Source: a virus (taxonomy: Duplodnaviria > Caudoviricetes). From it: a stretch of 53,935 nucleotides of DNA. The translations under genes and the position numbers were made by a program. Of this stretch, positions 416 to 44,682 are shown piece after piece. The notes beneath the pieces are model-generated. The model was not told the DNA's origin. It searched no databases and was given only the letters and a program-made list of their open reading frames with translations. Position 1 is the stretch's first letter. Every line of letters begins with the position of its first letter. The stretch is taken from IMG/VR virus record IMGVR_UViG_3300048836_000129, positions 1-53,935 of that record; one strand, 5' to 3'.

Positions 416-417
416 AT

Positions 418-792
418 ATGGCGTTTACATGGAAAGTCACAAATGATGATTTGACCATAAAAGATGGTAAATTCGAAATTGTTTCCAAAAAGGACGAGGT
501 CGCCCAGAGGCTTAAAACCGCACTGCTCCATGAATATGATGAATATTTTTTAAATTATACCAATGGCGTCCCCTGGTATCAATCAATTTTAGGGTCAAGG
601 AATACAAAAAACGCTGAATTGATTTTTAGAAAAATAGCCCTTGATGTCCCTGGGGTTATATCTGTTATCGGGTTAAATACGAATACATCGAATGGGCGAA
701 CAACCGTTGCGCTTACAGCAGAAGTTCAAGACGGTGATTATATCACGTCTACCGTAACAACGAATATATCGGGCCAATTAATAGGGGAATAG
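418..792 (+). CDS. Baseplate wedge / sheath initiator (gp25-like)
   Basis: 124 aa with EYFLNYTNGVPWYQSILG and VPGVISV motifs; lies between spike and baseplate J. Confidence 0.75.
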   Translation: MAFTWKVTNDDLTIKDGKFEIVSKKDEVAQRLKTALLHEYDEYFLNYTNGVPWYQSILGSRNTKNAELIFRKIALDVPGVISVIGLNTNTSNGRTTVALTAEVQDGDYITSTVTTNISGQLIGE

Positions 793-2696: not shown

Positions 2697-2707
2697 GAGA
2701 AAAAATC

Positions 2708-3544: not shown

Positions 3545-3553
3545 GGGACATCC

Positions 3554-5971: not shown

Positions 5972-5974
5972 AAC

Positions 5975-7360: not shown

Positions 7361-7370
7361 GGAGTAAAAA

Positions 7371-9119
7371 ATGGCCGTTGAGCTTGACACAGACGGGAAT
7401 AAAGCAATTGACATAAACCTTGGTGGCACAAATGCAAAAACAGCGAGTGAAGCTCTTTCTAATCTCGGAGGCCAGCCGTATGATGCTGATTTGGATATTC
7501 TTTCAAGCGGGACATTTAGTCAAAAAAGGGCATTAATTGAGGCATTTGCAAAGCCAGTTCTCGGAGTCGATGCCCTTAGAACCACAATGGCTGATTTTGA
7601 TGGCGATGCAAGATATCTAACATATCATACATCAATTGGAGATGGCGGCCATGGAATGGTTGTATGGGACTCAACATCGACAGCAGCAGACGATAACGGT
7701 GTTACGATAGCCGTAACGGGTGTTGCAACTGGAAGATGGGTTAGGCAGTTAAACGGTTTTGTAACGCCGGAAATGTTTGGTTGTGACGGTATTGACGACC
7801 ATGTTCAGATACAGGCGGCTGTTAACACTAAAATGAATGTTATCGGTGGCGGGCCAACAAAGACTTACAACATAGGCGAAAAAATAATATTACCTCCGTT
7901 GGATAATACAACTCTGTATCGAAAGCAGCAAATCATCGACTTTAGAGGCGCAACGATGTATGCCGCTTCTGAGATTGATGCATGTTTTGAGCTCACATCC
8001 GGCCCATGGCCGTTAAACAACACCAGGAAACGAATCCTCAATGTCATATTTCGCGGCTTTATCAACGACTGCATCTTGTTGACAGGTAATCATCACTGGG
8101 GTCACGAGTTCGCCTTTTTATCCACTGTTGGTGGACCTGGCGTTGGGGCTTTCAATTCGGTCGTGCACATTCAAAATACATTGATGGGGTCTGGCGCAAA
8201 TCCGGGCCTTATCAGCATTCACGATATCTGGGGGCTTTCTTCAACAACACTTTCCGTTATCAAGATGAGTAGTGACAACCCTGTCCAGATTGATGATCTA
8301 ACTGTAAAGCGCGTTTATGTGGGCGATATACCTATTGTGGACGGGACCAAAACCGTATTGATTTATGCACACGTCGAAGACTGCTATGGTCAAAGCCACG
8401 GCGTTAATCTTGCCAATGACGGCAGTTATATGACTAAATCTACCATTGAGGGTATTTATATTGAAGCGAAGAACGCCGATACTTATGGCTTTAATGGTAT
8501 AGGGATCAATAATGTCTTCGATAGAATTAATATGTACGTCCCAGATCATACAATTCAGACAGGATGTCAGGCTGTTAGGCTTTTATCCGGAACACTCGGA
8601 AAAAGCAACGACAATAGCATAGGACCGGTATCACTCATATCGTCGGCCTTGGGCGTAGCTCCGTATGCGACAGTGCCATACCCTATTGTTTATATTCAAG
8701 CCGGCTATAGGAATAAGATAAAAGGTATCAATCCGGACTATCTTGTAAACGCTGTGGAATACGGGAGCACGGACTATTCCGCTTTTACGGGAACCGTTAG
8801 TATTGATAGCCCGAAAAACGTGAATAAAAGCGCAACATACAATTTAACACTAAACGATAACGGATTCACTTTTACAAATGACTCGGCAACGGCCAATGTC
8901 CTACTATACCTCCCGTCGGCGCAGGTTGGGCTTAAGTACACTTTTTATAGAACGAATGCAACATACACCATACGAGTGCTAAACTCATTTGGGCATACCA
9001 TTAACGGGATCGGAACGTCCATCACGTTATCCGCGCAGTACGATTGTATTACTCTTGAGTGTATAAAAACGGGTCAATGGACTATAACGGCGCAGAATAA
9101 CGCGCCTACAACCCCATGA
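7371..9119 (+). CDS. Tail spike / depolymerase (beta-helix)
   Basis: GGTNAKTASEALSNLG; GDGGHG..WD...ADDNG.TI...GRWVR; VTPEMFG...DDHVQIQAAVN, typical of pectin-lyase-fold spikes. Confidence 0.8.
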   Translation: MAVELDTDGNKAIDINLGGTNAKTASEALSNLGGQPYDADLDILSSGTFSQKRALIEAFAKPVLGVDALRTTMADFDGDARYLTYHTSIGDGGHGMVVWDSTSTAADDNGVTIAVTGVATGRWVRQLNGFVTPEMFGCDGIDDHVQIQAAVNTKMNVIGGGPTKTYNIGEKIILPPLDNTTLYRKQQIIDFRGATMYAASEIDACFELTSGPWPLNNTRKRILNVIFRGFINDCILLTGNHHWGHEFAFLSTVGGPGVGAFNSVVHIQNTLMGSGANPGLISIHDIWGLSSTTLSVIKMSSDNPVQIDDLTVKRVYVGDIPIVDGTKTVLIYAHVEDCYGQSHGVNLANDGSYMTKSTIEGIYIEAKNADTYGFNGIGINNVFDRINMYVPDHTIQTGCQAVRLLSGTLGKSNDNSIGPVSLISSALGVAPYATVPYPIVYIQAGYRNKIKGINPDYLVNAVEYGSTDYSAFTGTVSIDSPKNVNKSATYNLTLNDNGFTFTNDSATANVLLYLPSAQVGLKYTFYRTNATYTIRVLNSFGHTINGIGTSITLSAQYDCITLECIKTGQWTITAQNNAPTTP

Positions 9120-9210: not shown

Positions 9211-9597
9211 ATGAATATTTCAAAATTAATAAAAGAATCGTCAGAAAAATACAATCTTGAATTAAACAATGGATTGTATTTTTTTGATGACGCAACTCTT
9301 GGAATGATCATAAATTCCTGCGGGCCGAAGGGAATCGGGGATAAAATTGTACCAGATTCAATTCTTGGAGTTCGAATCACAGTGGCTTGTCAGATCCATG
9401 ATTTTGATTATTTCGTCGGTCAGACGTTCGAAGATAAGAAGAACGCTGACCGACGATTTCTTGAGAATATGAGAAAGATCATTGAGTATGAGTCAAAGTT
9501 CTGGCCCTTGAAATATATCCGGTTAAAAATAGCAAAGGGATATTACGATGCCGTTAAATACGCTGGATATGAAGCATTTCAAGACAAGTCACTTTGA
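9211..9597 (+). CDS. Phospholipase A2-like / DUF1353-like protein
   Basis: NSCGP...ACQIHDFDY...ADRRFLENM (CxxHDxxY...D catalytic pattern). Confidence 0.6.
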   Translation: MNISKLIKESSEKYNLELNNGLYFFDDATLGMIINSCGPKGIGDKIVPDSILGVRITVACQIHDFDYFVGQTFEDKKNADRRFLENMRKIIEYESKFWPLKYIRLKIAKGYYDAVKYAGYEAFQDKSL

Positions 9598-9777
9598 TTT
9601 ATTGGGGTCAAGTTCCATCTCAAGATTGTCAATAAAATCACTGAATTTATCCTCTTTTTCATAACCTTCACAATGATGAACGGTGCATGTCGCCCGGCTT
9701 TTGCATGATCTGCAAATTTCGGGAAATGCACCAACACTTTCTTGTGCCATATCAAGTGGCATGTATCCTGTTGTCAT
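9589..9777 (-). CDS. Hypothetical Cys-rich protein
   Basis: ORF coupled to upstream minus-strand genes; CxxC...C...C. Confidence 0.5.
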   Translation of the reverse strand: MTTGYMPLDMAQESVGAFPEICRSCKSRATCTVHHCEGYEKEDKFSDFIDNLEMELDPNKSK

Positions 9778-21449: not shown

Positions 21450-22036
21450 AGATATTGAGTCAATCTGTAAAACTTGAAAGCGTGACCGAAAACCCAGAAC
21501 GTCTCATTGAAAAACACGGCCGGATTTGTTGGGGGTCATATGATAAAATGACGGAAAATTCAGCTCATGAATTCATATCAAAACTGATCCGTCTTGGTCA
21601 CCATTCTGTCATCGAACACGCCAATGCATCATTTAAAATTGTAGCTGATAGGGCAATATGTATGGAAATTGTAAGGCACAGAATTGCTTCATTTAGCATG
21701 TCATCAACAAGATATATACGATACAAAGACGATGTCCCATTTATTGAGCCTCCAGATTTAAACGAAGAACAACGGAGAGAATGGATAGAAGCGTGTGTTT
21801 TTTCTGAAAAAAAATATAAAAAGCTTTTATCAACTGGATGTTCACCACAAATAGCAAGATCTGTTTTGCCAAATTGCACAGCCGCAGAGCTTGCTATGAC
21901 GGCCAATTTTCGGGAATTTCTCCATTTTGTAAATCTCAGAAGTTCAAAAGCGGCACATCCTCAGATCCGGCCTATTGCCATTGAAATCAATAACATCCTG
22001 GCCGACCATGCCCCTTCAATCTTTGAAAAAATGTAA
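21446..22036 (+). CDS. thyX: FAD-dependent thymidylate synthase
   Basis: GHHSVIEHA, RHRIASFSMSSTRY, ARSVLP, NFREFLHFVNLR, AHPQIR. Confidence 0.92.
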   Translation: MKILSQSVKLESVTENPERLIEKHGRICWGSYDKMTENSAHEFISKLIRLGHHSVIEHANASFKIVADRAICMEIVRHRIASFSMSSTRYIRYKDDVPFIEPPDLNEEQRREWIEACVFSEKKYKKLLSTGCSPQIARSVLPNCTAAELAMTANFREFLHFVNLRSSKAAHPQIRPIAIEINNILADHAPSIFEKM

Positions 22037-22078
22037 TACATCGTGGCCCCTAACCGGGCCACAAAAAAAGGATTTTTT

Positions 22079-31242: not shown

Positions 31243-31560
31243 TTATATTTCCCAACATGCAAGCGCATAATTATCCCTGAAATCATGCCTGATAAACCAA
31301 AACGAACTTACCATATTGCGACCTCTTGTAACTCTATCAAGAGGCCAGCCCATAGATTTACATGCTGACATAGCTTCTTTTTTATAGCAATATGTTAATG
31401 CCATCGAAGGGTTCTTGAAATATGTTTTTCCTCTTTTTGTATAGAAGGAAACAAGCTGCCTAATCACATTTCCTTTTTCATCGAGATATACAGCCATTCC
31501 CTGCTCTTCAAATTCTCGCAACATATTCACATCCTTCCCGCCAAAGCGGATTAAGCCCAT
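31243..31560 (-). CDS. Hypothetical protein
   Basis: ORF in inverted cassette. Confidence 0.55.
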   Translation of the reverse strand: MGLIRFGGKDVNMLREFEEQGMAVYLDEKGNVIRQLVSFYTKRGKTYFKNPSMALTYCYKKEAMSACKSMGWPLDRVTRGRNMVSSFWFIRHDFRDNYALACWEI

Positions 31561-31581
31561 GATCTCTGAACCTTTTTTTGT

Positions 31582-31605
31582 TCCCCTATCGGTTAGGATA
31601 GGGGA
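31582..31605. terminator. GC-rich hairpin (possible terminator or RNA-stability element)
   Basis: TCCCCTATC-N6-GATAGGGGA; only a weak U-tract on the plus strand. Confidence 0.4.
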
Positions 31606-31618
31606 TTGGTTTATATGC

Positions 31619-31804
31619 TTAAACCGTCAAAAATTTAGACCAATCTGATCTTATTTCTGGCTGGTCAATCACTTCATGGGCGATAAGTGCGCCAGATGCT
31701 TTGTCAGTGTAAATGCGTATAGCTGTTCCATTGATTTTAACAGTTCCTACGTTTGCAATACCTGATGGCGCAAGTACGTGCGCACATTCTTCTTTTGTTT
31801 CCAT
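31619..31804 (-). CDS. Hypothetical protein
   Basis: ORF downstream of a promoter; true start may lie slightly upstream. Confidence 0.45.
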   Translation of the reverse strand: METKEECAHVLAPSGIANVGTVKINGTAIRIYTDKASGALIAHEVIDQPEIRSDWSKFLTV

Positions 31805-31881
31805 GGCTTTTTTATGTCATTTTTTGTTATCATATTCGTTCTCCTTTGTTGTTTTTGTTAATTCCCTCACTCTTTGATTAC

Positions 31882-31909
31882 ATCTTACCACTTTCAGTTT
31901 TAATGTCAA
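31882..31909 (-). promoter_or_regulatory. Extended -10 promoter (same family)
   Basis: TTGACA-N13-TGG-TAAGAT. Confidence 0.7.
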
Positions 31910-31928
31910 GTATTATTTTATGTTTTTA

Positions 31929-32396
31929 TCATAAAATAATTGATTCATAAATTTGACGATGGTCGATGTGGTTCAGAATCTCAATTCCATACATGCCCTT
32001 GATTTTCTTGATGTTTTCCACTGGAGTTATCAAGACCTTGGAGTCAAGATAGTCAATAAAATCATTTTTTGAAAAACCAAAAGACTTGATATTTTTTAAA
32101 ACATCTTTGAAATCTGTGTTCTGGATCATAAGTCCGGATATTTTATCCAGATTCCCAAAATCCAAAACCGGCCCCAGGTGTATTTCGAAACAGTCGTCCT
32201 TTTCGATGATTTCGGTAATCTGACATGTCATCCATTGCGACTTTGTATTCCGGCCATTAACGATCCTGGCCGTGGAATATTTCCGGAACGCCAGACGAGA
32301 ATACCAGTATGGAGATTTGTCGCGGTATTCAATTGTTTTATCGCCACATAGGATGGCCTCGAAATGGTGTCGGTGGATCGGAATTGTGAGTTGCAT
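31929..32396 (-). CDS. ASCH-domain protein
   Basis: FEAILCGDKTIEYR...YWYSRL. Confidence 0.75.
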   Translation of the reverse strand: MQLTIPIHRHHFEAILCGDKTIEYRDKSPYWYSRLAFRKYSTARIVNGRNTKSQWMTCQITEIIEKDDCFEIHLGPVLDFGNLDKISGLMIQNTDFKDVLKNIKSFGFSKNDFIDYLDSKVLITPVENIKKIKGMYGIEILNHIDHRQIYESIIL

Positions 32397-32597
32397 TTAT
32401 GATATCCTCCTAACACAATAAACCTTCTCGGCGGTTTCAGTTTTCGGCCATACCATGATGGCCTGTTCCGATGTGAATTTTTTCCCCTTGATCCCGGCGA
32501 TGTATGCCGAAATCTTTTTAGGATCAATCCCCCGGTAAAACACCTCGCCCATTACAGGCAAGGCCGAAAGCTCTTGGCGATCAATTTTTGTTTTCAT
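32397..32597 (-). CDS. Hypothetical protein
   Basis: GAGG RBS; abuts the ASCH gene. Confidence 0.6.
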   Translation of the reverse strand: MKTKIDRQELSALPVMGEVFYRGIDPKKISAYIAGIKGKKFTSEQAIMVWPKTETAEKVYCVRRIS

Positions 32598-32687
32598 GGT
32601 ATCCTCAGAAAGATGTTATTTCTTTGTATTTCAATTCCAACAATATCTTTTTTATCATATATTTCAAATACCTTTATCATTTAAGCC

Positions 32688-33017
32688 TCACATGAATAGA
32701 TCGCAAATTTTCATCATATTATATTTTTTTATTCCAGTTTTCCAGGAATAATAAGGGGAAGTGATATAATTGGCGCATGGAACATTAAGATCACCAAATA
32801 TTGAAAAAGGGCATTTTTTGCAATCACCTTTGTAAAAAATACATGCAAAACATATATTTTCATATCTTGCTATCGCTGTAATATTTGATTGATATTTTTC
32901 ATTATATCCATTTTCAATCATATCGTTCCAATGCTCAACAACAAGGTCTTTCATTTGTTCTTCTGTCAGCGTTTCAATATCGTAGTTTTCTTTTATCCAA
33001 TCAAGCTTTGTTTTCAT
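32688..33017 (-). CDS. Cys-rich hypothetical protein (paralog of 42569..42811)
   Basis: CFAC....DCKKCPF. Confidence 0.6.
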   Translation of the reverse strand: MKTKLDWIKENYDIETLTEEQMKDLVVEHWNDMIENGYNEKYQSNITAIARYENICFACIFYKGDCKKCPFSIFGDLNVPCANYITSPYYSWKTGIKKYNMMKICDLFM

Positions 33018-33035
33018 TTTTTATTTCCCATTTAA

Positions 33036-33275
33036 TTATTCGTGGTCAAGTGATTGAATTGTATGAAGCTGTGTCCACCTTATATTTTCCATATTCATGA
33101 GATCTTTAATAATATTAAGATCAGATTCTCTTTCAACATCAAAATGATAATACACTGGAGAAAGCCAATCTCTTGATTCAATCCAGTTATAAACGTAATC
33201 ATTTTTTATTGCCGAATGAACATCTACCAGTTTATAAATATCGTGGTTATGAATTTGAAATTTTCCTTTTGTCAT
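33036..33275 (-). CDS. Hypothetical protein
   Basis: Coupled ORF with GGAG RBS. Confidence 0.55.
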   Translation of the reverse strand: MTKGKFQIHNHDIYKLVDVHSAIKNDYVYNWIESRDWLSPVYYHFDVERESDLNIIKDLMNMENIRWTQLHTIQSLDHE

Positions 33276-33553
33276 TTTCTTTCTCCTTTCAATTGTAACT
33301 CAGCCCTTTCCCTTGCCACAGCATAAAGAGGATGGCACCCAAACAATACAACTTTCCCGCAATCAAAATAGTCTTCCAAGGTATTTGTTTCGTTTTCATA
33401 TTCCTTGAATATTTTTCCAAGATTTCGATCATAAGCCTTGGCGTATATTGTGACGCATTTTCGACCGTCAATTCTATTATCAAGAGAATATAAAACCCTT
33501 GCTTTTATTTTGGTTTCTGTATCCGTTACATTGTGCTTATTGAATTTTATCAT
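33272..33553 (-). CDS. Hypothetical phage protein
   Basis: MIKFNKH...EDYFDCGKV..HPLY; AGGAG RBS; first gene after a promoter. Confidence 0.65.
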   Translation of the reverse strand: MIKFNKHNVTDTETKIKARVLYSLDNRIDGRKCVTIYAKAYDRNLGKIFKEYENETNTLEDYFDCGKVVLFGCHPLYAVARERAELQLKGERK

Positions 33554-33588
33554 TTTCAGCTCCTATTATTGTTCGTTCATTTGCCTCC

Positions 33589-33616
33589 ATATTACCACAA
33601 CCGTTTCCCATGTCAA
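33589..33616 (-). promoter_or_regulatory. Extended -10 promoter (same family)
   Basis: TTGACA-N13-TGG-TAATAT. Confidence 0.7.
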
Positions 33617-33649
33617 CCATTTTATTCAAAAAACATAAAAATAATTTAT

Positions 33650-33679
33650 CTTGAATAAAAACACATGTAAGGCTATAAA
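33650..33679 (+). promoter_or_regulatory. Putative late promoter
   Basis: CTTGAATAAA.A.ACATG motif shared with 43706; TTGAAT-17-TATAAA. Confidence 0.5.
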
Positions 33680-33717
33680 ATAACTAATAATAATCAAAAA
33701 TGCCTTTGGGGGGATAT

Positions 33718-34041
33718 GTGGAAAAATGGCTTATTGTAATTGGCGGGGTTTTCGGTACTGGAATAGTCGTTTATATCGTCCAGAGGTGGATTCAAGGGCT
33801 CGAAAAGAGTTTTCAAGATGGCCTTTTGCTCTTGAGCCAAAAACTTGATTTATCAATTCAATTAGTTAGGGAAACAATCCACCCTCTCCAGAAACTCGCC
33901 GAAAAAACAGCCTTTGAACTCGATACGGAAAAAGAAAAACGTATTATGTGCGTCCTGAATAATAAAGACATATATGCACTTAAAACAGAGCATCAGGCCC
34001 TTGAAAAAGAAGTCAATAAAATAAGGACTATGATAAAATGA
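33718..34041 (+). CDS. Single-TM coiled-coil protein, holin-like candidate
   Basis: WLIVIGGVFGTGIVVYIV helix followed by coiled coil; head of the late operon; start uncertain (GTG 33718 or ATG 33700). Confidence 0.5.
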   Translation: MEKWLIVIGGVFGTGIVVYIVQRWIQGLEKSFQDGLLLLSQKLDLSIQLVRETIHPLQKLAEKTAFELDTEKEKRIMCVLNNKDIYALKTEHQALEKEVNKIRTMIK

Positions 34042-34107
34042 CCGCGTTTGCTTGCATTTTTATTTTTTGTGTGATAGCCTTAGCCATATGGGAACTTGAT
34101 CATCATG

Positions 34108-34290
34108 ACGATGATACGATTTGAAAATGAATCTATAAAAAAAGCCGTTGACCATATCTCTAAAACAATCTCCGCATGGTCCGATGGTGATTATATCCCG
34201 GATGATTTCATATTGGGTGAAATCGAAAACGCCATGGATAGTTTAAAAATGGAGATTAAATCTTATGATGATGAAGTACATGACCCATGA
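34108..34290 (+). CDS. Hypothetical protein
   Basis: ORF; start uncertain. Confidence 0.4.
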   Translation, partial: TMIRFENESIKKAVDHISKTISAWSDGDYIPDDFILGEIENAMDSLKMEIKSYDDEVHDP

Positions 34291-34558
34291 CGGAGAGGTC
34301 GGCGGATATTTTGATATTGCCGAAATCGTATTATGGAAAAGAGGTGCAACAGATCCTCATATCATGATTGATAAAAATGGAGATATTAAAAAGCTTCCAA
34401 AAAGAACAAAGCCAGTGAGAAAAAAGGCAAAAGAACCACACAGATATAAAGCCAACAACAAAATGGCCAAACCGGACCCGATTTCAAGATGGTTTTTCGC
34501 CGTCACAGAAAACTATATCAATTCACTCCACAAACTCATAACATGGGATTATCAATGA
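34265..34558 (+). CDS. Hypothetical protein
   Basis: Coupled ORF. Confidence 0.5.
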   Translation: MMMKYMTHDGEVGGYFDIAEIVLWKRGATDPHIMIDKNGDIKKLPKRTKPVRKKAKEPHRYKANNKMAKPDPISRWFFAVTENYINSLHKLITWDYQ

Positions 34559-35088
34559 AAAAGATCATCGTATTTATCGCAATTATCGGACTTTCAGCTT
34601 GCTCGAAAAAGAACATTGAAACATCTGCCCAAGTATCAATGATCGACGGGAAACCAGCCGTGACCATCACAGTACAGCCCAAAAGCGAAACAAAACCCCA
34701 GATATCAATCACTGAAGATGATGTACGCCGGGCACTGGAAACAAATGAACCTCCTGTTCCGGTTGAATTTGATATTTTTTTCGATTTCGATAGCGCCAGC
34801 CTGAAACCCGAATCAATGGATATGCTTGAATCAATTTCCACCATGCTGAAATTCTATTCAGGGCTTGAATTGATTATTGAGGGGCATACCGACGAACGAG
34901 GAACGGAAGAATATAACATCGCCCTTGGTGATAAACGTGCGGCGTGCGTCAAAAAATACCTTGAAAAACTTGGAGTCAATACCGATAAATATCAGGTTGT
35001 TAGCTATGGAGAAGAAAAACCGTTCGCCGATGGAAATACAGAGGAATCATACAAATTAAACAGACGAGTTCACGCTCATTCAAAATGA
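34555..35088 (+). CDS. Pal/OmpA-like peptidoglycan-binding lipoprotein
   Basis: Lipoprotein signal MKKIIVFIAIIGLSA|C; IFFDFDS, IEGHTDERGTEEYNIALGDKRA, SYGEEKP, NRRV. Confidence 0.9.
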   Translation: MKKIIVFIAIIGLSACSKKNIETSAQVSMIDGKPAVTITVQPKSETKPQISITEDDVRRALETNEPPVPVEFDIFFDFDSASLKPESMDMLESISTMLKFYSGLELIIEGHTDERGTEEYNIALGDKRAACVKKYLEKLGVNTDKYQVVSYGEEKPFADGNTEESYKLNRRVHAHSK

Positions 35089-35163
35089 ATAACACCCGGC
35101 AACACTATGATTGGATAATATGCGTTCGCAGGTTGTCGGGTTATTTTTAACGGTAGGTGTTTT

Positions 35164-35595
35164 ATGAAGACCAAAGAACCAAAAAAGAAAATGGGAAGGC
35201 CACCGAAGGAAATCAGCAAAAGCATATTCGAGGAACTATGCAAAATCCAATGCACCGAAGAAGAGATAGCCGGTGTGTTTAGTTGTTCGGTAGATACCAT
35301 ATACCGATTCTGCAAAAAAACGTATGATAACAAAAGTTTTGCGGATGTTTTTAAACAGTTTTCATCCCATGGAAAGTCTGCCATACGTAGGCAGCAGTTT
35401 CACATCATGAACAACGGAAACGCAGCTATGGCCATATGGTTAGGGAAACAATATTTGGGTCAAAAGGAGCAACCGGAGATTACGTTATATGATGGTGGAG
35501 AGGCATTGACCCCAGATGAACGGGCACGGCTTACCAGGATGAGGATGCAAACGGAACTTTCCCCGCTTGACAATTTATGCGAAAGTAATAAATGA
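35164..35595 (+). CDS. terS: Terminase small subunit
   Basis: MGRPPKEI, CTEEEIA HTH, GNAAMAIWLGKQYLGQ; upstream of terL. Confidence 0.8.
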   Translation: MKTKEPKKKMGRPPKEISKSIFEELCKIQCTEEEIAGVFSCSVDTIYRFCKKTYDNKSFADVFKQFSSHGKSAIRRQQFHIMNNGNAAMAIWLGKQYLGQKEQPEITLYDGGEALTPDERARLTRMRMQTELSPLDNLCESNK

Positions 35596-35696
35596 CGTTT
35601 TTTTATTGTTCTTTTGAAACCGTTGATATTATTTGATAAAAACGTATAGTTGAACTGTGTGCGGTTAACATTGCCCACGGGCGGGATACCTAAAAA

Positions 35697-36311
35697 ATGA
35701 TTGAATCGAATCGGAAAAAAATAGCGGCATTATTTGTCCAGCCCGATGGTTGCTATATAAATATACCTATTATTGATATGTGGCCAGAGTATAGAGACGC
35801 GAGAAAATATTATGGAGACATGCCGGTTATAGCGCATCCGCCCTGCCAGTTATGGGGTAAAATGGCAAAAATAAACTATAAAAGATGGGGTGGAGATCAT
35901 AACAAGCCCGGAAATGATGGTGGGTGTTTTAAATTCGCTCTTGACACAGTTAATAGAGTCGGTGGCGTCATAGAACATCCTGCCCAGACATACGCATGGA
36001 ATGAATATGGATTGTCAAAACCTGAAAAAAATAAATGGGTTAAAAGCGGCATAGGATGGGTTTGCGAAGTATGGCAGTCTGCATATGGCCATAAAGCAAA
36101 TAAAGCGACATGGCTTTATTATGTTGGAAAATCAAAACCATTTGATATTATATGGGACCGTCCGAAAGGATCACATCAGATAGGGCATTATGATCAGCGC
36201 GGGAAAAGTTCAAATAAGCCCACTCTAAACAAAAAAGAAAGCAACGCAACCCCGATAAAATTCAGAGACGAACTCATAAAACTTGCTTTGTATTCTTGTG
36301 ATGTCCTATGA
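35697..36311 (+). CDS. Short atypical C5-cytosine methyltransferase-like protein
   Basis: DAR.Y, IAHPPCQ (motif IV), VIEHP (motif VI), YGH.A.KATWL (motif VIII-like). Confidence 0.65.
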   Translation: MIESNRKKIAALFVQPDGCYINIPIIDMWPEYRDARKYYGDMPVIAHPPCQLWGKMAKINYKRWGGDHNKPGNDGGCFKFALDTVNRVGGVIEHPAQTYAWNEYGLSKPEKNKWVKSGIGWVCEVWQSAYGHKANKATWLYYVGKSKPFDIIWDRPKGSHQIGHYDQRGKSSNKPTLNKKESNATPIKFRDELIKLALYSCDVL

Positions 36312-36490
36312 CGAAAGAACAAGCCGAGTTTGTCAGAGAGTTGAGGGTTGACCGTGGATGTTCTTGGCGCAGGCTTCATGAATTATATTGTGAAAGATAT
36401 GACAAGGAAAACATGTGGCCGGGCAACCAGATAGAGGGCCGTGATTTGTGTGTTGAGGCTTCTGTTATTCTTGAAGTTGAAATTGAATAA
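36308..36490 (+). CDS. Small HTH-like protein
   Basis: VRELRVDRGCSWRRL; ATGA coupling. Confidence 0.55.
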   Translation: MTKEQAEFVRELRVDRGCSWRRLHELYCERYDKENMWPGNQIEGRDLCVEASVILEVEIE

Positions 36491-36514
36491 AAAAAGCCCT
36501 GATCAAGAGGCTTT
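36488..36514 (-). terminator. Rho-independent terminator (minus strand, possibly bidirectional)
   Basis: AAAGCCTCTTGATCAGGGCTTTTTTT on the minus strand. Confidence 0.7.
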
Positions 36515-36718
36515 CCGCATTGGTTGCGGCGCGTCGAATGACCAGGGCTTGCCATATTGCCAGCGCTGACAACATGGGGGGGCATGAAGCCCATGGCGTA
36601 ACACGACTATAAAATGCCGTGACATTGGTCATGGAACAATTAAAACGGCGCTTGTTTTGCCAGGCGGGCACAAACGCCAAAGCCAATATTTCAAAAGCTT
36701 AAATCACATAAACCATAC
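36488..36718 (-). ncRNA. Candidate ~230-nt structured small RNA
   Basis: GC-rich non-coding island with several helices, bounded by a near-consensus promoter and a terminator on the minus strand. Confidence 0.55.
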
Positions 36719-36724
36719 AGATTT

Positions 36725-36753
36725 AATATAAAGTTTTTAAAAAAATAAGTCAA
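36725..36753 (-). promoter_or_regulatory. Sigma70 promoter for the candidate sRNA
   Basis: TTGACT-17 bp-TATATT. Confidence 0.6.
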
Positions 36754-36761
36754 CATAAAAA

Positions 36762-38255
36762 ATGATCAATCTAATAGATTTCTGGAGAATACAGCGAAAA
36801 CAAACCGGGCAACAGACGATCATCCGGCCGTGCCATATGTTCAAGGCAAAGGCGCTGACGGATCTGGTTCTCGGAAAGTTGCCAACTCCGAATCTAATGA
36901 TCCTTGAGCCCCCACGAATCGGCAAGACGGATCTTGGGGTAAAAGCCTTTGTACCGTGGTCCTGGAGCTACTTTCCGGATTCGGAATATATCATTGGGGG
37001 ATATGGCGCTGACCTTCCGACAGAAAGCGCCGTCCACATCCGGAATACATTATCATCGCCATGGTATAAAAGCATGGTGGGTTCAGATTGGGGCTGTAAT
37101 GTAGCATTGAGGGGCGCTAAAGCTTCAGGCCGATCTGATTATTTTAAGACTCTTGAAGGTGGCGTATTAAAAGCTGTTGGTCGCGGTGGTAGTGCCACAG
37201 GATTTGGTATCGGTAAACTTCGTCCTGAATTCGGAGGTTGCGGAATAGCCGATGACTTGCTAAAGGCGCAAGAGTCAACAAGCGCACCCCTTAGAAAAGC
37301 GGCGAACGTTTTTCTAATGAGCGCTTTGATGACACGAAGGAATCGTCTTGATGATCCTTCCACGCCCATTGTATTAATCATGCAGAGGCTTCACCCAGAT
37401 GATCCAGCGGGCCACCTCCTTAAAACAGAACGACACAGATGGACCATTGTACAGATCCCGGCGCACAATGAAAAAGGTCAAAGCATTTGGGAAGAGCGTA
37501 TAAGCTCAAAAGAACTCCAATACATGAAGGAATACGCGCCTGACGTTTATCATGCCCAATACATGCAGGAACCTATCGCAGACGGATACAACATTTTCAA
37601 AGCCGAATGGTGGGGATTGTGGGATGACCGGAAGGCAGTTGAGAAAAAGATAACCTGGAAATTCATAACCGGTGACACGGCGTTTAAAGCCAAAGATTCA
37701 TCGGACTATTCTGTTTTCCAGTGCTGGGGTGCTGAAAACACCCGTGGTTTGTATCTCATGGATCAGATCCGGGGCAAATGGGAATTCCCTGAGCTTGTCA
37801 AGAGAATCAAGGAATTCAAGAATAAGCATACAAGAAACGAAATGGGCATAACCCCGGCCACCGAACTATGGATCGAAGATAAGGCCAGCGGAACGTCCCT
37901 TGTTCAAACATTGAGAGCTGAAGGAATACCATGTAACGCATGGGGCGACAAAGAAAGCGATGGCGTTTCAGGCGATAAAGCGGCCCGTGCAAAACAAACC
38001 ACATTGACATTGCAGCAAGGACGTGAGTTTGTACCTGACCCACGGATGCCGGGTTATGAATGGGTTGACATATTCGTCGGTGAACATGTCGCTTTCACGT
38101 CGGACGATTCACACGCATATGACGATCAGGTAGATACCCGGTCGATGGCAAACCTTATATGGCAAAAACGAGGCGGCGGCGTTGGTCCGCTTCCAACATG
38201 GAACAATTTAAGGAAATACGCGAATGGCCAGGAAAAAATCTACCGTCTCGAATAG
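36762..38255 (+). CDS. terL: Terminase large subunit
   Basis: Walker A PPRIGKT, Walker B IADDLLK, IMQRLH..D, nuclease DTAFK / IEDKASG / DDQVD. Confidence 0.93.
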
Positions 38256-41226
38256 GATTCAAAACGCTTCTTTTACATCTTACTCAGGGGGGCAACTCGG
38301 AGACGGCGACCGTGGTTCTTATCACATGTTGCCGAATTATACTGGCAACCCCTATGACTCCAATGATTACATTTTCAGATGGCGTCAATACTGCCACCTC
38401 TATGAAATCTCATGGGAAGCCAGAAAGATCATCCGCATTCCGATTGAAGACGCCATGCGGAAGGACTGGGAAGTCAAAGGTATTGAAGAGGCAAACGCTA
38501 ACCAGATCAAAACGCGCCTTGACCAGCTTGGTTTTAAGCTTTCTTTAATGCGCGCCATGATCCTTGAGCGTCTTCTTGGTGGATGCCTTCAGTTTTTCGG
38601 AATTGAAGATAACCGAGACGAACCGGAACGTGAATATTTACCACGGAATGGATACCGGACCAGATTCATAAATACCGTGCCCATTTCGAGGATTGCCCGT
38701 GTTGATTGGGGAACCGATCCCCTGAAAGCTGACTACATGAGACCGGAAAAATTCCTTGTGAACGGCGTCCAGGTCCACACGTCCAGATGTTTGGTCTGGG
38801 ACGGCGAACCGCTGTTTGATCCTTATGATTTCGCATTGACCAATTTTAGATCAAACATTTCAGGCTTCGGCCCTTCAAAGCTTGCGCCTATCTGGGATGA
38901 TATCGTAAGAGCTACAGGAATCAGGCAAGCGGCTTTCCAGATGGCCCAGATGAACAACTCCATAATCGCAGCTCTTGAAGGATACCAGGATTTAAGGGGG
39001 ACTGTCCCTGGTCAGAACAAGCTATCTGATATAAAGAAGCTTGTTAATGAGCTGTCAGTTTATAAAGCGGCAATCCTTGACAAGGGGAAAGTCGATGTGA
39101 CAACCCTGGCTGCTTCATTTGGATCGGTCCCGGAAATGATGATCACATCACTCCAGATCCTTTCAGCGGCTTCCGATATCCCGGCGACACGATTTATAGG
39201 TCAGGCACCTGGAGGATTAAACGCCACGGGCGAATCAGACCTTGAGAATTATTACAACGTCATTGACGCAATCCAAAAACAGAGAATGGAACCGAGGCTT
39301 AGAAAAACGTATGACATTATCGGATGGCAGATGTTCCCAAATTCATGGGCCGAAGACCGTAAAAAACTTGAGTTTGAATTTCCCCCATTGTGGAACCTCA
39401 GCGAACTGGAAGAGGCTGACAGAACATCGAAAATCATTGACAACATGGCGAAGCTTCTTGAAAACAGGCTTATCACAGAAGAAAAGGCCATTGAAGAACT
39501 GACGAAAAAGAACGTTGTCGGAGTTACGCTTGATGATATGGATATGTCGTCCTTGAAAGATACCGGCCTTTTTGATGAACAACCAAACCCGAAAGAATCA
39601 ATCGAAAAATTAAAACAATTTCCTGTGAAAAATTCAAATCCTGAATCATTATTGATAGTTGCGGCAGGTGGAAAGCCCGAAGATTTTGACGCACGTCAAT
39701 TTAAAATGGGAATGGAAGTCGAAAGGGAACACAAAGACGTCACGCATGGTGATGAAATTCAAACGGCGAAAATAGTTCTTGCACACCTACGAGAAAAGCC
39801 CGATTATTATACAAGACTTCAGAAAGTTGAAAATTCTGAAAAATGGATAACTGTTAAACCTAATGGGCCAGATGCAAAAGGTTCTCATGTTCAATTAGAT
39901 GATGACGGGAAAGTGACGGCCGGCCTTGGTGGTGGTTTTAATGGAAAACATATCTCGGAAATAAATAGTGCGTCAAAAAAAGAAACCATTCCAAAAGATA
40001 AATATTCAGATCCACAACAATATGAATCTGACCCAGAACTATCTCAAGCTGTAAAAGATGCGGCGCAGGCTGGTTTTGAGAAATATGGTGCCGGGAAAAT
40101 GAGCCGTGGAGATTTCAAACAAAAAGTAAGGAGTGGAGAAATCCCCGAAGCTGTCAAAGAGTATCATGGAAAAATTGTTGAAAGTCAAAGAATAAAAAAA
40201 GAAGGGTACGAAGCCGCAAAAAATATCAATATGCCTGATGGATATTCAATAAGTGAAAGAAATAAAGACGAAATAGCTATCCACGGAAAATATGATGAAC
40301 AACTCCATAAAAGAATTAAAAGGGCTGGAGGATATTGGGCGCAAATATCTGAATCTGGGCCTGAAAAAGGATGGGTTATAGCCAAAGAAAAAGGGAAAGA
40401 TCTCGAAAAGGCTGTCAGCAATGCTAAAAAAGCAAATGAAAAAATAAAAACAGACGAACAAGAAAAGAAAAAAGCTGAATCTGAAAAGAAGCAAAGAGAT
40501 GAAAAGGAAAAGAAAGAAAGGTTTTCCAAAGAATCTGAAGACAATAAAAAGAAAGAGGCCGAAAAGAGAAAAGAATTTGAGCGGACTCACGAATTAAAAA
40601 TGATTCCAACAGGAAAAACAATTAGAAGAAAAATAACAGACGATGATCCTTCTATTTATGGGCATGAACTACTTGGCCATGAGGGTGAAATGTGGGATTT
40701 TCCTGAAATGAAAAAAGAATGGGTCAAGAAAAATTCTATCCAAAACAAAATCGACCTTGACCCATTACCAGAGCCATCACAAAAACAAATCGAATCTGGA
40801 AACTACAAAAAACACCATCTGAAGTTGTATGGATTCGATATTTCGATTGAGAATCCGAAGGGTTCAAGGCGCTCAGGGATAGATCTTAATGGTGAAGCAT
40901 GGTCCGTTAAAATGCCAGCTCACTACGGCTATATAAAGCAGTCAGAAGGAGCCGATGGAGACCATTTAGATGTTTATATAGGCCCAAATGAAAACAGCCA
41001 AAAGGTTTTTGTGATTGACCAAACCGACCTATCGGGAAACTTTGACGAACACAAATGCTTTTTAGGTTGCAACAACAAGGAACAGGCCGAAAAGCTTTAT
41101 CTGAAAGGCTTTAGCGATGGAAAAGGGAATCTAAGGCTTGGAAGGATGATTGAAACGGATATAGACGGTTTCAAAGAATGGCTTTCAAACGGAGACCAGA
41201 AAAAAAGATTTGCTGAGTATTTTTGA
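38224..41226 (+). CDS. Portal protein (DUF1073-type) with C-terminal DUF5661-like, KWITV and inorganic-pyrophosphatase-like domains
   Basis: [31 protein letters not shown] (portal); MGMEVEREH...[16 protein letters not shown]; GNYKK...ISIENPKGS...HYGYI...[12 protein letters not shown]...FDEHK. Confidence 0.88.
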
Positions 41227-41230
41227 AACA

Positions 41231-41268
41231 AAAAGACCCGTGCATTTTTGATAATGCACGGGGCTTTT
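41231..41268. terminator. Bidirectional terminator
   Basis: AAAAG..CCGTGCATT-N6-AATGCACGG..CTTTT between convergent transcription units. Confidence 0.75.
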
Positions 41269-41551
41269 ACAGGAAAGAATCACGTTTCGCCTTATGAATC
41301 ACCGTCTCTAATATTATTCATGGCATGTATGTTGCGCTATATGGTTAAATTTCAGCCGAATTATATACCGGGAGCATTTATGATTTCACGGTGAATCGGC
41401 ATCTTATACAGTGTCGCCCATTTCTTCTTCACTCCAGACATTGATTGAGAAGTCGCGGCGGAGCATGAAAATAGTTGCCGATAGACGCCTATCGTCTACC
41501 GGGTTGAAAAGAACGTCATGCCCATTTTTAATAAGCGAAGACACGACATTC

Positions 41552-41959
41552 TTAATCCTCCAATCCCTGTTCCCACCTTGATAAATCATCCTCATCCCAC
41601 CACGCCTGAATGATGTCACAGGCACGGCCACAGGCAACGGGTGTCAGCTTTGACAGACAGCTTTCGGAGATTGCGGCGCAAACGGCGTCAACGTGTTCTG
41701 AAAAAAGCTCCCAGATCCGTTCGTAATAGTATCCTGAAGTAAAAAACTCTTCCCTCATACTGATACAATCCGCACAGGTCTTAAATTCGTCGAAAGATCC
41801 ATCCCAGAACCCGGATGTTTTTTCGTATTTCTCGCCCTTGGAAATAATCCGCTTACACTCGCAACACTTGTGTTCCTTGATTGCCTTTATGGTTTTTGTC
41901 TTGAAAAAAGACGGCCCATCCTCGTCAATATCAACGTCAACTTCACATGAGCATTCCAT
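41552..41959 (-). CDS. Cys-rich (Zn-binding) phage protein
   Basis: KAIKEHKCCEC.R.I.KGEKYE...TC.DC; GGAGGTG RBS. Confidence 0.75.
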   Translation of the reverse strand: MECSCEVDVDIDEDGPSFFKTKTIKAIKEHKCCECKRIISKGEKYEKTSGFWDGSFDEFKTCADCISMREEFFTSGYYYERIWELFSEHVDAVCAAISESCLSKLTPVACGRACDIIQAWWDEDDLSRWEQGLED

Positions 41960-42009
41960 TATGCACCTCCATTTACCTCAAGAAATTTTTCAATCTATGA
42001 TTCAGTGTT

Positions 42010-42126
42010 TTAGTCGTTCATCCCTGAATATCTTGGACCAATGACAGCGGCTTCAATAGAGAACATGGCCTTTGAACGAGCGCCCGCATCGTCGATTCCA
42101 ACATCAATTTCGCATGAGCATTCCAT
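42010..42126 (-). pseudogene. 38-codon ORF duplicating the RBS and N-terminus of 41552..41959
   Basis: MECSCEIDVGIDDAG versus MECSCEVDVDIDEDG; shared GAGGTG.ATAATGGAATGCTCATG. Confidence 0.55.
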
Positions 42127-42180
42127 TATTCACCTCACCTAAAAATAGAAAGAGCAAGCATGGCTACACCCCCGTGGTTT

Positions 42181-42327
42181 TTAATCCTCTTCACATTCGG
42201 ATTTTAGTTCATAATCTTTGATTTCTCTTAAATACTCTTTTTTTTCCGTTAAATCATACCACCATCGGTTGAGTTTATAATCAAGATATTCAAACAAGCC
42301 ATCTATAGGGGTTTTTTGAGTTTTCAT
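42181..42327 (-). CDS. Small hypothetical protein
   Basis: MKTQKTPIDGLFEYLDY...; start uncertain. Confidence 0.4.
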   Translation of the reverse strand: MKTQKTPIDGLFEYLDYKLNRWWYDLTEKKEYLREIKDYELKSECEED

Positions 42328-42334
42328 ACTTGAT

Positions 42335-42547
42335 TCATTCATCTTCGAATTCGGCTTTGTACGCCGCCTCAACATCCGAGAACTTGATTTGGCCCTGGAT
42401 ATAATCGCACAGCGCCTCACTCGCGCAACCATCGACCGAAAGAACCATGAAATCGCACATGAACGGCTTCGGTTCTCCGATGGTCGGATCTGCCGGTGCG
42501 ATTTCGACTTCTATATCTATCTTCATTCCATTGAAATTGTAAATCAC
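42335..42547 (-). CDS. Hypothetical protein
   Basis: AAGGAGG RBS before GTG. Confidence 0.6.
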   Translation of the reverse strand: MIYNFNGMKIDIEVEIAPADPTIGEPKPFMCDFMVLSVDGCASEALCDYIQGQIKFSDVEAAYKAEFEDE

Positions 42548-42568
42548 GTTATCCTCCTTTTTTTGGCA

Positions 42569-42811
42569 TTAAAAATCCCGATAAGTCAGCTCTTCATCCG
42601 TTTCAGGGTAGTAGTCGATGAAAAGCTGAGCGATTTCGATGGCGTCTTGTCGAGTGCCTCTACCTTTAGAAAATTCACGAAACGGGCCATTTTTAATACA
42701 GAATTGTTTATATTCGATCTCAAAAGGGCATTCTCGGCATGATCTAATATGCGCTTCGCACGCGAAACATGATCCGAATGGCATATATTTGTTAATTAAA
42801 AAATACAACAT
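42569..42811 (-). CDS. Cys-rich hypothetical protein (paralog of 32688..33017)
   Basis: CFAC....SCRECPF. Confidence 0.55.
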   Translation of the reverse strand: MLYFLINKYMPFGSCFACEAHIRSCRECPFEIEYKQFCIKNGPFREFSKGRGTRQDAIEIAQLFIDYYPETDEELTYRDF

Positions 42812-42923
42812 TTCACATTAGTTCCGCATATTTTATCGCCCATCTTTTCAGCAATTTCATTCCACGTCTCGATACATGCGTCATAGTGCCAAGCCTTTGA
42901 CATTTCTTTTCCGTTTATTTTGA

Positions 42924-43130
42924 TCATTTTTCCCCCAACTCTCGGATGTCGTTGATGTACTGCAAAACCAAGTCTTGATTGGCCAAAATAAAATATGATA
43001 AATCTTCGCAGAAGTCTGACGACATAGATTTAGAAGCCTTGCGAACAAATTCATATGAAATTGCGGCTTTTTTTGTATCGAAAACCCGACCGTCTTCAGT
43101 CTCCCATCTTGTTACCTTTATTTCTCTCAT
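42924..43130 (-). CDS. Hypothetical phage protein
   Basis: WETEDGRVFDTKKAAISYE; AAGGA RBS. Confidence 0.65.
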   Translation of the reverse strand: MREIKVTRWETEDGRVFDTKKAAISYEFVRKASKSMSSDFCEDLSYFILANQDLVLQYINDIRELGEK

Positions 43131-43163
43131 GTCCTTCTCCTTTATTAAAATTAAAGATGTTTC

Positions 43164-43191
43164 AACTTATCAAAACATGGCAAAAAGTCAA
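43164..43191 (-). promoter_or_regulatory. Extended -10 promoter (same family)
   Basis: TTGACT-N13-TGA-TAAGTT. Confidence 0.65.
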
Positions 43192-43622
43192 GGGAATATA
43201 AAATTAAAAATGCGGTCAAAAAACTTCATGCTTTGAATTTTTTTGAATATCATTTTATAATTGTTATTTTCTTGTTTTATTTCAATCAATTCATCTTTCA
43301 GATGTTTGATTTCGAAAATATAACGATCAATTTTCTGTTTGAGATCATCTATTTCCAAACATTTATCTTCAATTATTTCAAGTGGTAGATTTAGATACCT
43401 TTCAACATTTGGTAACCATGCAATAGAATATTTTTTTATTTCACCACCTATATTGATTGAAAACATCCTGCCACTTACCTCTGTCACTTTAATAGGGTCA
43501 GATTTAAAATAACCCGGATCATACATTCTCATTTCTTCGGTCTGGAAATATTGAAACCTGTCGCCCCTGAACCGCTCTATTTCAATTGATTTCACCACTA
43601 TCATTTCTTCCATGTTTTTCAC
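43188..43622 (-). CDS. Hypothetical coiled-coil protein
   Basis: AT-rich ORF after a promoter. Confidence 0.6.
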   Translation of the reverse strand: MKNMEEMIVVKSIEIERFRGDRFQYFQTEEMRMYDPGYFKSDPIKVTEVSGRMFSINIGGEIKKYSIAWLPNVERYLNLPLEIIEDKCLEIDDLKQKIDRYIFEIKHLKDELIEIKQENNNYKMIFKKIQSMKFFDRIFNFIFP

Positions 43623-43649
43623 CCATTATTTTTATGATTAATATTTAAA

Positions 43650-43677
43650 ACCATATCAAATGGCATGGAAAAGTCAA
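43650..43677 (-). promoter_or_regulatory. Extended -10 promoter (same family)
   Basis: TTGACT-N13-TGA-TATGGT. Confidence 0.65.
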
Positions 43678-43705
43678 CAAAAATAATCACCAATAAAAAT
43701 AAACC

Positions 43706-43737
43706 CTTGAATAAACATACATGCCGGATTATATAAT
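43706..43737 (+). promoter_or_regulatory. Putative late promoter for the head operon
   Basis: CTTGAATAAACATACATG; TTGAAT-17-TATATA(AT). Confidence 0.5.
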
Positions 43738-43767
43738 GAAATATAAAATCAATAAAACCGGTGGTAT

Positions 43768-44682
43768 ATGGCTATTATTATTGATCGAAAACAGATCGAA
43801 AAACTTGAGCGAACAAAAAAGGCAAAAAAGGCGAAGGTCCAAAAGCCACCGGCCAAAGCTGAACGCAATTTCCAGAAGGAGATTGAAGCGAGACTCGCCG
43901 CTATTATAGGGCCGATCATTGAAGATTTGAAAACAATGATTGAACGGAAGGCTTCTCCTTCTGAAATAGCCATATATCTTGAAGACGCTCTGCGAAATGC
44001 TGAAATCCATGTCAATCATTCTGTAAACGGTATCATTGATATATGGAAAAGCGAAATGGACGAACTGACAAGGGAACAGTTCACGAGATCGCTCACGCAG
44101 ACTCTTGGCGTTGATATTACAGCAGTTCTTGACGAACCGAGGATAAAAGAAGCTCTCGAGATTGGTGGGCGAGAGGCCGCTAATCTCATTGTGAATATGC
44201 CCGGCGAATTTATTGATGGTGTGGCCAAGGCTGTGGCCGATAATTTCCGGGGCACACCACTGCCGGAAGGAAGAACGCTCTTTGAACAAATCATGCACCT
44301 TGGAGATGTTTCGAAATCAAGGGCGAAACTCATAGCCCGTGACCAAACGACCAAAATGCAGGGTCTTTTAAACAAGGAGCGACAACAAGAAATAGGCGTC
44401 ACGATGTATATTTGGCGCACCATGAAAGACAGGAGAGTGGTAGGGAACCCGGCTGGATTCTATCCCAAAGGAACACGCCTACATAGAAAACACTATCTCA
44501 TGGAAGGCAAGCATTGCCGGTGGGATGATGCAACGGTTTATTCTGACGATGAAGGCAAGACCTGGAAGAAAAGGACGCCGGACATGCCCCATGTTCACCC
44601 AGGGGTTGATATCCAATGTCGGTGTATAGCCGAAGCCGTCATTGATATAGACCAAATCATAAAATACGCGAACGCCGCATAG
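43768..44682 (+). CDS. Minor head protein (SPP1 gp7/Mu gpF family)
   Basis: RAKLIARDQTTK, YIWRTMKDRRV, HPGVDIQCRC. Confidence 0.9.
   Translation: MAIIIDRKQIEKLERTKKAKKAKVQKPPAKAERNFQKEIEARLAAIIGPIIEDLKTMIERKASPSEIAIYLEDALRNAEIHVNHSVNGIIDIWKSEMDELTREQFTRSLTQTLGVDITAVLDEPRIKEALEIGGREAANLIVNMPGEFIDGVAKAVADNFRGTPLPEGRTLFEQIMHLGDVSKSRAKLIARDQTTKMQGLLNKERQQEIGVTMYIWRTMKDRRVVGNPAGFYPKGTRLHRKHYLMEGKHCRWDDATVYSDDEGKTWKKRTPDMPHVHPGVDIQCRCIAEAVIDIDQIIKYANAA

Follow-up and report, generated by a model that had tools for sequence, protein, structure and literature searches.

A candidate minus-strand RNA gene at the terS-terL junction of an uncultivated tailed phage

The phage and its terS-terL junction

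The DNA analysed here, referred to as the window, covers an IMG/VR virus record of 53,935 bases from end to end, with an estimated completeness of 78%. PHROG and Pfam scans of the window describe a tailed phage with several modules: baseplate and fibre genes (1-9100) are followed by a replication and nucleotide-metabolism block (10600-31200), a few genes on the minus strand (31243-33553) and a late block that lies entirely on the plus strand and includes an OmpA-like gene, terS, a 204-aa gene, a 60-aa gene, terL, a portal fusion and head genes. Near-identical DNA is contained in wastewater and activated-sludge runs from nine studies. The best TerL match in the phage database is about 37% identical and there is no cultured relative; TerL relatives of 50-62% identity are plentiful. 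Some of them (L006 426-3011; P0050 and P0076) are 847-861 aa long and carry PF14890, which we take to be the intein-splicing domain, and this suggests that the terL of sister phages has an intein inside. Two further features of the late block are worth recording. The portal fusion (38224-41226) encodes 1,000 aa, with the portal at residues 55-409, a DUF5661 and a C-terminal 'InPase' domain at residues 854-987, and its C-terminal third also matches minor-head and DarB-like families. Within the head module, a stretch of 2.5 kb (41226-43768) holds a minus-strand ORF (41552-41959, matching PHROGs of unknown function) and small ORFs on either strand, and looks like an accessory insertion separate from the one described below.

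The putative small terminase subunit is encoded by terS at 35164-35595 on the plus strand (PHROG terS families, E 3.4e-7 and 1.5e-5), and terL, identified by the PHROG and Pfam scans, follows at 36762-38255 on the same strand. On sequence comparison, the DNA between them (35596-36761) reads as a strain-variable insertion of about 1.2 kb, since in relatives terS homologues stand directly before terL. This arrangement is found in two of the 11 close loci examined (L163 and L006), which were drawn from three collections. Of nine close relatives, eight have a plus-strand ORF that adjoins or overlaps the start of terL and leaves no gap, and for the ninth the upstream DNA is too short to judge. The variability of the junction is directly visible in one activated-sludge DNA run, where contigs leave the window sequence at 36445 and rejoin it at 36736 or 36763, so that at least two alternative sequences replace the region just before terL. 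A further contig of the same run joins 35696 to 36308 with a 4-base overlap, and in it the 204-aa gene is precisely absent (35697-36307). The terS-terL junction is a hot spot of cassette exchange that breaks assemblies.

At the head of the insertion lies a plus-strand promoter-like site, TTGATA-16-TATAGT (35623-35650, 10 of 12 consensus positions). It is followed on the plus strand by the 204-aa gene (35697-36311), which matches phrog_12600 and whose product is predicted to have a C5-methyltransferase-like fold. The structure model of this protein has a pLDDT of 88 and its best PDB matches, all of them weak, are uniformly C5 cytosine DNA methyltransferases, led by M.HaeIII (E 2.5e-3, TM 0.38); an invariant PPCQ motif fits these matches. 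Model and motif point to a relationship with the C5 cytosine DNA methyltransferases, and 204 aa is unusually small for a putative enzyme of this fold. The family is very large (more than 5,266 matches), tightly conserved and not represented by a Pfam model, and the matches listed are 66-77% identical, barring two near-identical forms. Neither this protein nor the terS product gave any match in NCBIfam or PADLOC. The homologue in Ralstonia phage PQ43W carries no annotation and lies within the replication block.

The second gene of the insertion (36308-36490, plus strand) encodes a protein of 60 aa, whose exact sequence occurs on 13 contigs and whose cluster at 90% identity has 23 members. By inspection the protein is charged and has no hydrophobic stretch, and it has no family match in PHROG, Pfam, NCBIfam or PADLOC. 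Between its stop codon and the terL start codon there is a gap of 271 nt (36491-36761), which is the subject of the present work. The start of terL has an A-rich leader (36735-36762) with no Shine-Dalgarno sequence, while most genes of the phage have GGAG-like sites.

Promoter, terminators and predicted fold of the gap

Three signals are found in the gap, all on the minus strand. An earlier note on this DNA, made by reading the sequence, had described a promoter, a G+C-rich body and an intrinsic terminator on this strand, adjacent to and divergent from terL, and these elements are indeed present. The promoter, TTGACT-17-TATATT (36753-36725), matches the sigma-70 consensus at 10 of 12 positions; its -35 hexamer is 9 nt from the terL start codon at 36762 and transcription is predicted to start at about 36718. 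It ties for the best match in the 6 kb scanned (33000-39000). As a class, promoter-like sites are no commoner there than in shuffled sequence (16 found, 15.3 +/- 3.3 expected), and thus the gap promoter by itself is not beyond chance.

The second signal is a hairpin, hairpin 1, of 12 pairs (36678-36647, -15.5 kcal/mol; with its tail 36678-36635). Since its U-rich tail follows directly (36646-36635), it looks like a first, weaker terminator, and a short RNA form of about 80 nt ending there is possible; a weak Rfam alignment also places a terminator hairpin at this site. The third is a long terminal hairpin (36550-36494, -29.2 kcal/mol) that abuts a U7 tract (36495-36489), the two forming an intrinsic terminator at 36489-36550 whose tract overlaps the stop codon of the convergent 60-aa gene. 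In the minimum-energy fold the terminal hairpin spans 57 nt and encloses an inner hairpin (36529-36515). Among the 208 T runs of at least six residues on both strands of the whole window, this terminator ranks fourth by the energy of the preceding hairpin, and a consensus terminator scan missed it because its loop is longer than 8. No T-run follows either terminator-like hairpin on the plus strand, so both are predicted to terminate minus-strand transcripts only. The promoter, the U-tailed first hairpin and the hairpin with its U7 tract are in the correct order, on one strand and within 271 nt. The best terminator candidate of the window lies elsewhere, at 22031-22073 between a thymidylate-synthase-like gene and the next ORF, and is a clean two-way terminator, in which A and T runs stand on either side of a perfect G+C-rich hairpin.

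The predicted RNA body of about 230 nt (36488-36720, minus strand) falls outside the Rfam families, has no conserved reading frame and has an unusually stable predicted fold. Its minimum free energy is -83.5 kcal/mol (z -3.32) and none of 200 dinucleotide shuffles is as good, versus a z of -1.86 and 11 of 200 shuffles for the plus strand. When the folding energy of 233-nt segments from both strands of the phage (n=2,686) was regressed on composition, the minus strand came out among the lowest 0.22%, versus the lowest 3.1% for the plus strand, making the region the second most extreme fold locus of the phage. The strongest residual belongs to 9241-9640 on the plus strand (z -3.9 to -3.3 over several segments), which lies within and just past an unannotated ORF (9211-9597) and before a block of small minus-strand ORFs. 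The asymmetry between the strands is due to five G.U pairs among the 54 robust pairs of the RNA, which would be mismatches on the plus strand, as the earlier note had remarked of its wobble pairs. The G+C content of 36490-36640 is 52% versus 40% overall, in the top 2.8% of 150-nt segments, and the roughly 40 nt at the 5' end of the RNA are A/U-rich and mostly unpaired in the centroid.

The structure model, derived from the window sequence itself, contains three further hairpins on the minus strand between hairpin 1 and the terminator. Hairpin 2 (36602-36621) has six pairs and hairpin 4 (36552-36577) has 11 (-12.9 kcal/mol), while hairpin 3 (36580-36592) is doubtful, having four pairs and a 3' arm within a variable run of seven C. 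A set of four helices and a crossing pair had been proposed in the earlier note. All of them are complementary, including the crossing pair 36533-36/36604-07, but the ensemble backs only two of the helices, 36647-55/36670-78 and 36515-19/36525-29, with probabilities near 1; the first forms the upper part of hairpin 1, a feature on which the note laid no stress, and the second is the inner hairpin of the terminator. The other two are rejected as part of the main structure: 36538-44/36626-32 has an ensemble probability near 0, and so does 36573-78/36590-95, which moreover sits in the variable C-run. Imposing all four helices yields -68.1 versus -83.5 kcal/mol, at a cost of 15 kcal/mol.

Natural variants and searches for relatives

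A collection of 15 billion proteins includes the flanking 60-aa, 204-aa and terS proteins as called genes but none of the five ORFs of the gap. A search of protein collections with the 73-aa minus-strand frame of the gap did return five spurious 'proteins' (P0154, P0274, P0275, P0276 and P0277), which occur on eight contigs and are minus-strand readings of the RNA region. Of these, P0154, P0274 and P0275 were threaded onto the window and P0276 and P0277 were read against them by eye, a procedure that shows residue-altering changes only. All five start at ATG 36756, have about 60 residues in common and then continue in three different frames. The divergence is explained by the run of seven C at 36576-36583, which in the variants is shorter by two, shorter by one, or carries a C>G change. 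In the frame common to the variants, the window copy is interrupted by two stops and differs by 7 nt. No reading frame is therefore conserved, which argues against a protein product and agrees with the earlier view that the gap has no credible ORF.

Read as RNA, the same variants leave much of the unit intact. At visible positions, the promoter hexamers, both arms of hairpin 1 and hairpins 2 and 4 show no more than two single changes; for the promoter, the hexamer codons are intact in all five variants, which however were recovered via that same stretch. The stems of hairpin 1 are unchanged at visible positions while its apical loop is 7 nt longer in all five, and the terminator is unchanged at visible positions in one lineage. 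The two single changes preserve pairing. In hairpin 2, 36606 T>C (three of the five variants) turns a G.U into a G-C pair, next to a loop change at 36610, and in hairpin 4, 36573 G>A turns a G.U into an A-U pair in four variants, the residue change of the fifth permitting it among three options. Visible changes outside the robust pairs are found at 36719, 36693, 36629, 36610, 36585, 36537, 36530 and 36522. The inner terminator pair 36527/36517 is changed on both sides across the variants, with 36527 G>T in P0275 and P0277 and 36517 C>G in P0274 and P0276, each position being invisible in the frame of the other two. Other changes nearby are common to all four, and an exchange of G-C for U.G would be the simplest reading, the two sides being seen in different contigs. 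A change at 36544 affects an outer terminator pair, which would be lost unless the partner 36500, a position outside the variants' coverage, were changed as well.

The changes in the C-run strike both helix 36573-78/36590-95 and hairpin 3, neither of which is conserved. In a rough simulation in which 13 visible substitutions, eight of which fall outside robust pairs, were placed at random, the probability of at most one broken pair was 0.073 and that of a pair altered at both positions yet remaining canonical was 0.072; the C-run zone, where hairpin 3 is damaged, was excluded from this count. The variation thus agrees with a conserved fold for four of the six helices, in a way that is suggestive only and no proof.

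Four sequencing runs were compared as contigs rather than reads, and contigs give neither strand nor ends. The one match from an RNA library, in the X18 metatranscriptome, is a low-depth contig of 211 nt over 36470-36680, for which DNA carry-over is possible and which does not count as evidence of transcription; it carries the loop insertion of the variants and nine changes relative to the window.

Searches for relatives of the RNA, whose family the earlier note did not recognise, returned no match beyond the near-identical variants. With Rfam 15, no part of the window reached a gathering threshold, and at E up to 10 the region 36300-36900 gave only weak, terminator-driven alignments, the best being the 23S-methyl motif (E 0.56, 21.8 bits versus a threshold of 50); the alignments of MicC and of a toxic-sRNA model involved nothing but the terminator. 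Scans for tRNA and tmRNA genes and for tandem or dispersed repeats found none, apart from one weak direct-repeat pair, and the best further copy of any part of the gap within the window is a 14-mer. No homologue was returned by blastn of 36400-36850 against 50,697 phage records, by blastn of the gap against 72,556 plasmids, by blastn and nhmmer of the gap against 161 loci (best E 0.18) or by two exact-pattern scans of IMG/VR, whose output may leave out near-identical records. A covariance model built on the single sequence (R1) and run over the window and 199 of 252 loci (those other than L201-L253) reached a best foreign E of 1, and no RNA homologue was found in these 199 terL-anchored loci. 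The same holds for a DNA search of the full records behind L007, L163 and L005, for the loci anchored on the 60-aa protein (L244 and L245) and for the one anchored on the 204-aa protein, that of Ralstonia phage PQ43W (L243), where no similar RNA is present. A tblastx comparison of the gap with all loci matched nothing but the N-terminus of terL, and a pseudogene remnant was rejected, there being no translated similarity to the sequence upstream of terL in relatives. Because homologues are limited to near-identical variants, no deep covariation is available. A non-exhaustive full-text search of the literature turned up no published account of an RNA gene located at a terS-terL junction.

Possible roles of the RNA unit

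We consider it fairly probable that the gap holds a transcribed non-coding RNA gene. The suggestion of the earlier note that it forms a stand-alone minus-strand unit is the best reading of the sequence, with most of the specific functions then offered finding no support. Its product is a plausible candidate for an orphan phage sRNA, with a strand-specific fold above background, apparently non-coding, optional among strains and of no described family, its general kind being already known. That such a gene exists and, in addition, has a cis-acting role is a more tentative proposal, which we prefer and set out here.

According to the cis-acting proposal, the sigma-70-type promoter would fire away from terL and give rise to an independent ncRNA of about 230 nt, the transcript ending at two tandem terminators at the stop codon of the convergent 60-aa gene. 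Promoter and terminator scans found no plus-strand terminator and no plus-strand promoter of at least 9/12 in 35651-36761. Since none lies between the insertion promoter and terL, plus-strand transcripts from this promoter or from further upstream would be expected to continue across the gap into terL. Along its whole length the RNA is complementary to the plus-strand inter-gene stretch before terL, and RNA and promoter may act together in cis as an insulator. In particular, head-on transcription and occupancy of a promoter so close to the terL start codon (9 nt) would hinder read-through, while antisense pairing with the read-through RNA could lead to cleavage of the duplex. As an outcome, early or cassette transcription would enter the late packaging operon to a limited extent or in a reshaped manner. 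If terminated as predicted, the RNA shares only about 3 nt with the 60-aa coding sequence and ends about 44 nt short of the terL start codon, so that any antisense effect would depend on the presumed plus-strand read-through.

Such an insulator or antisense role would be similar in kind to that of lambda OOP RNA, a short phage RNA of about 77 nt that starts at a sigma-70 promoter of its own, ends at an intrinsic terminator, covers tens of bases at the 3' end of the cII coding sequence and acts by pairing. An own promoter and an intrinsic terminator opposite the neighbouring genes are likewise found here, as sequence signals, and the unit is convergent to a protein gene. In contrast to OOP, the gap RNA is about 230 nt long, overlaps the neighbouring coding sequence by some 3 nt and would pair with read-through RNA before terL; no sequence or model similarity between the two was found. 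The 6S RNA of lambda offers a second comparison. This short PR'-tR' transcript of about 200 nt points into the late genes and is a substrate of Q antitermination, and it resembles the gap unit in combining a promoter (constitutive in lambda) with a terminated RNA of about 200 nt at the entry to a late operon, whereas the gap unit points away from terL.

A third comparison concerns the antitoxin role suggested earlier. The antisense RNAs of Bacillus prophage type I systems, RatA/txpA and SR4/bsrG, are about 180-220 nt long and have a short hydrophobic toxin as partner. They resemble the gap RNA in being phage-borne, of similar size and convergent with a small gene (60 aa here) with which the terminator region is in common, but the overlap with the mRNA is only predicted here and the 60-aa protein is charge-rich, with no hydrophobic stretch of the kind found in type I toxins. 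A type I partnership thus finds no support. A type III system of the ToxIN kind is disfavoured as well, as the region has no tandem repeat array, only the one weak direct-repeat pair.

A different possibility is that the RNA is real and acts in trans as a payload of the cassette, either as an Hfq-type regulator of host or phage mRNAs or as a decoy (sponge) that binds a host protein or part of a defence system. The unit stands alone, with a promoter of its own and seven U after the terminator hairpin, as for Hfq-type RNAs, and its A/U-rich 5' end of about 40 nt is largely unpaired in the centroid. A strain-variable accessory insertion that also carries a DNA-methyltransferase-like gene is, in addition, a usual site of host-directed functions. 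However, the best duplex between the RNA and the start regions of the 89 ORFs of the phage, the only genes covered by this comparison, is no better than that of shuffled RNA (25% of 60 shuffles are as good), and the RNA resembles no known sRNA family. We regard a trans-acting role as unlikely.

It is also unlikely, in our estimate, that the gap holds no dedicated RNA at all and is instead a recombination scar, regulatory DNA or a terL 5' leader left by cassette insertion, its signals being incidental or remnants of a lost minus-strand operon. This explanation would fit the chance density of promoter-like sites, the alternative sequences that other strains carry at this insertion hot spot, the confinement of homologues to near-identical variants and the variation statistics, which are not significant. 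On the other hand, two U-tailed hairpins that occur on the minus strand only and lie downstream of the neighbourhood's best promoter match are hard to obtain by chance. The minus strand, unlike the plus strand, ranks within the lowest 0.22% of the genome for its fold, and the unit is kept in five variants on eight contigs, with changes mainly in loops.

Very unlikely is a small protein, encoded either by a minus-strand frame of 80-98 aa from ATG 36756, of which the window copy would be a decayed form, or by a 40-aa frame (36625-36503). The longer frame is open in all five variants recovered, and its first 50 or so residues, rather hydrophobic, are identical among them except in P0275 (one substitution) and P0277 (a one-residue insertion and a substitution). 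The openness is uninformative, since a protein database can show open forms only, and the three different frames after about residue 60, together with the two stops and the frame change of the window, speak against a product. The ATG falls inside the -35 region, upstream of the predicted transcription start, and has no Shine-Dalgarno sequence. HMMER searches of 1.84 billion representatives found only near-identical forms of the 73-aa frame, and the ORFs of the gap, besides going uncalled as genes, have no PHROG or Pfam match.

Even less probable is a packaging element, whether a prohead packaging RNA of the phi29 kind, for which Rfam includes a family, or a pac/cos recognition region of the terminase. 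The link to packaging was an idea of the earlier note and is favoured only by the position beside terL; the phi29 RNA is likewise a structured phage RNA of similar size, but phi29 is a phage of another kind. The Rfam alignments at E up to 10 include none to a packaging-RNA model, TerS, TerL and portal are encoded here by ordinary genes, the gap is missing from relatives whose TerL is 50-60% identical, and direct-repeat arrays like terminase-binding sites are absent. In particular, as variants in one DNA run replace the whole region, an RNA that is optional among co-occurring strains cannot be a core part of the packaging machinery. Finally, a self-cleaving ribozyme or other catalytic RNA, also suggested earlier, is hardly credible, since nothing beyond a structured, G+C-rich body speaks for it, no Rfam ribozyme model matched at E up to 10 and the central C-run varies in length between strains.

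Returning to the cis-acting RNA, a bolder form of the proposal is that it represents the first member of a class of phage RNAs that ride mobile cassettes at the terS-terL junction, where they would gate transcription of the packaging operon or double as decoys of host defence. We think this quite improbable; if true, an optional cassette would bring its own RNA 'valve' and so avoid deregulating the late genes that it interrupts. The weight of the finding is modest, as it concerns one orphan locus known from sequence alone. To our knowledge, roles have been established for only a few phage-encoded small RNAs, hardly any of them from uncultivated phages. If real, the unit would show how a cassette placed between the two terminase genes is made harmless or useful, and it may provide a design rule for phage mosaicism, in which a head-on promoter and an antisense RNA block read-through from a cassette and thus constitute a natural insulator part.
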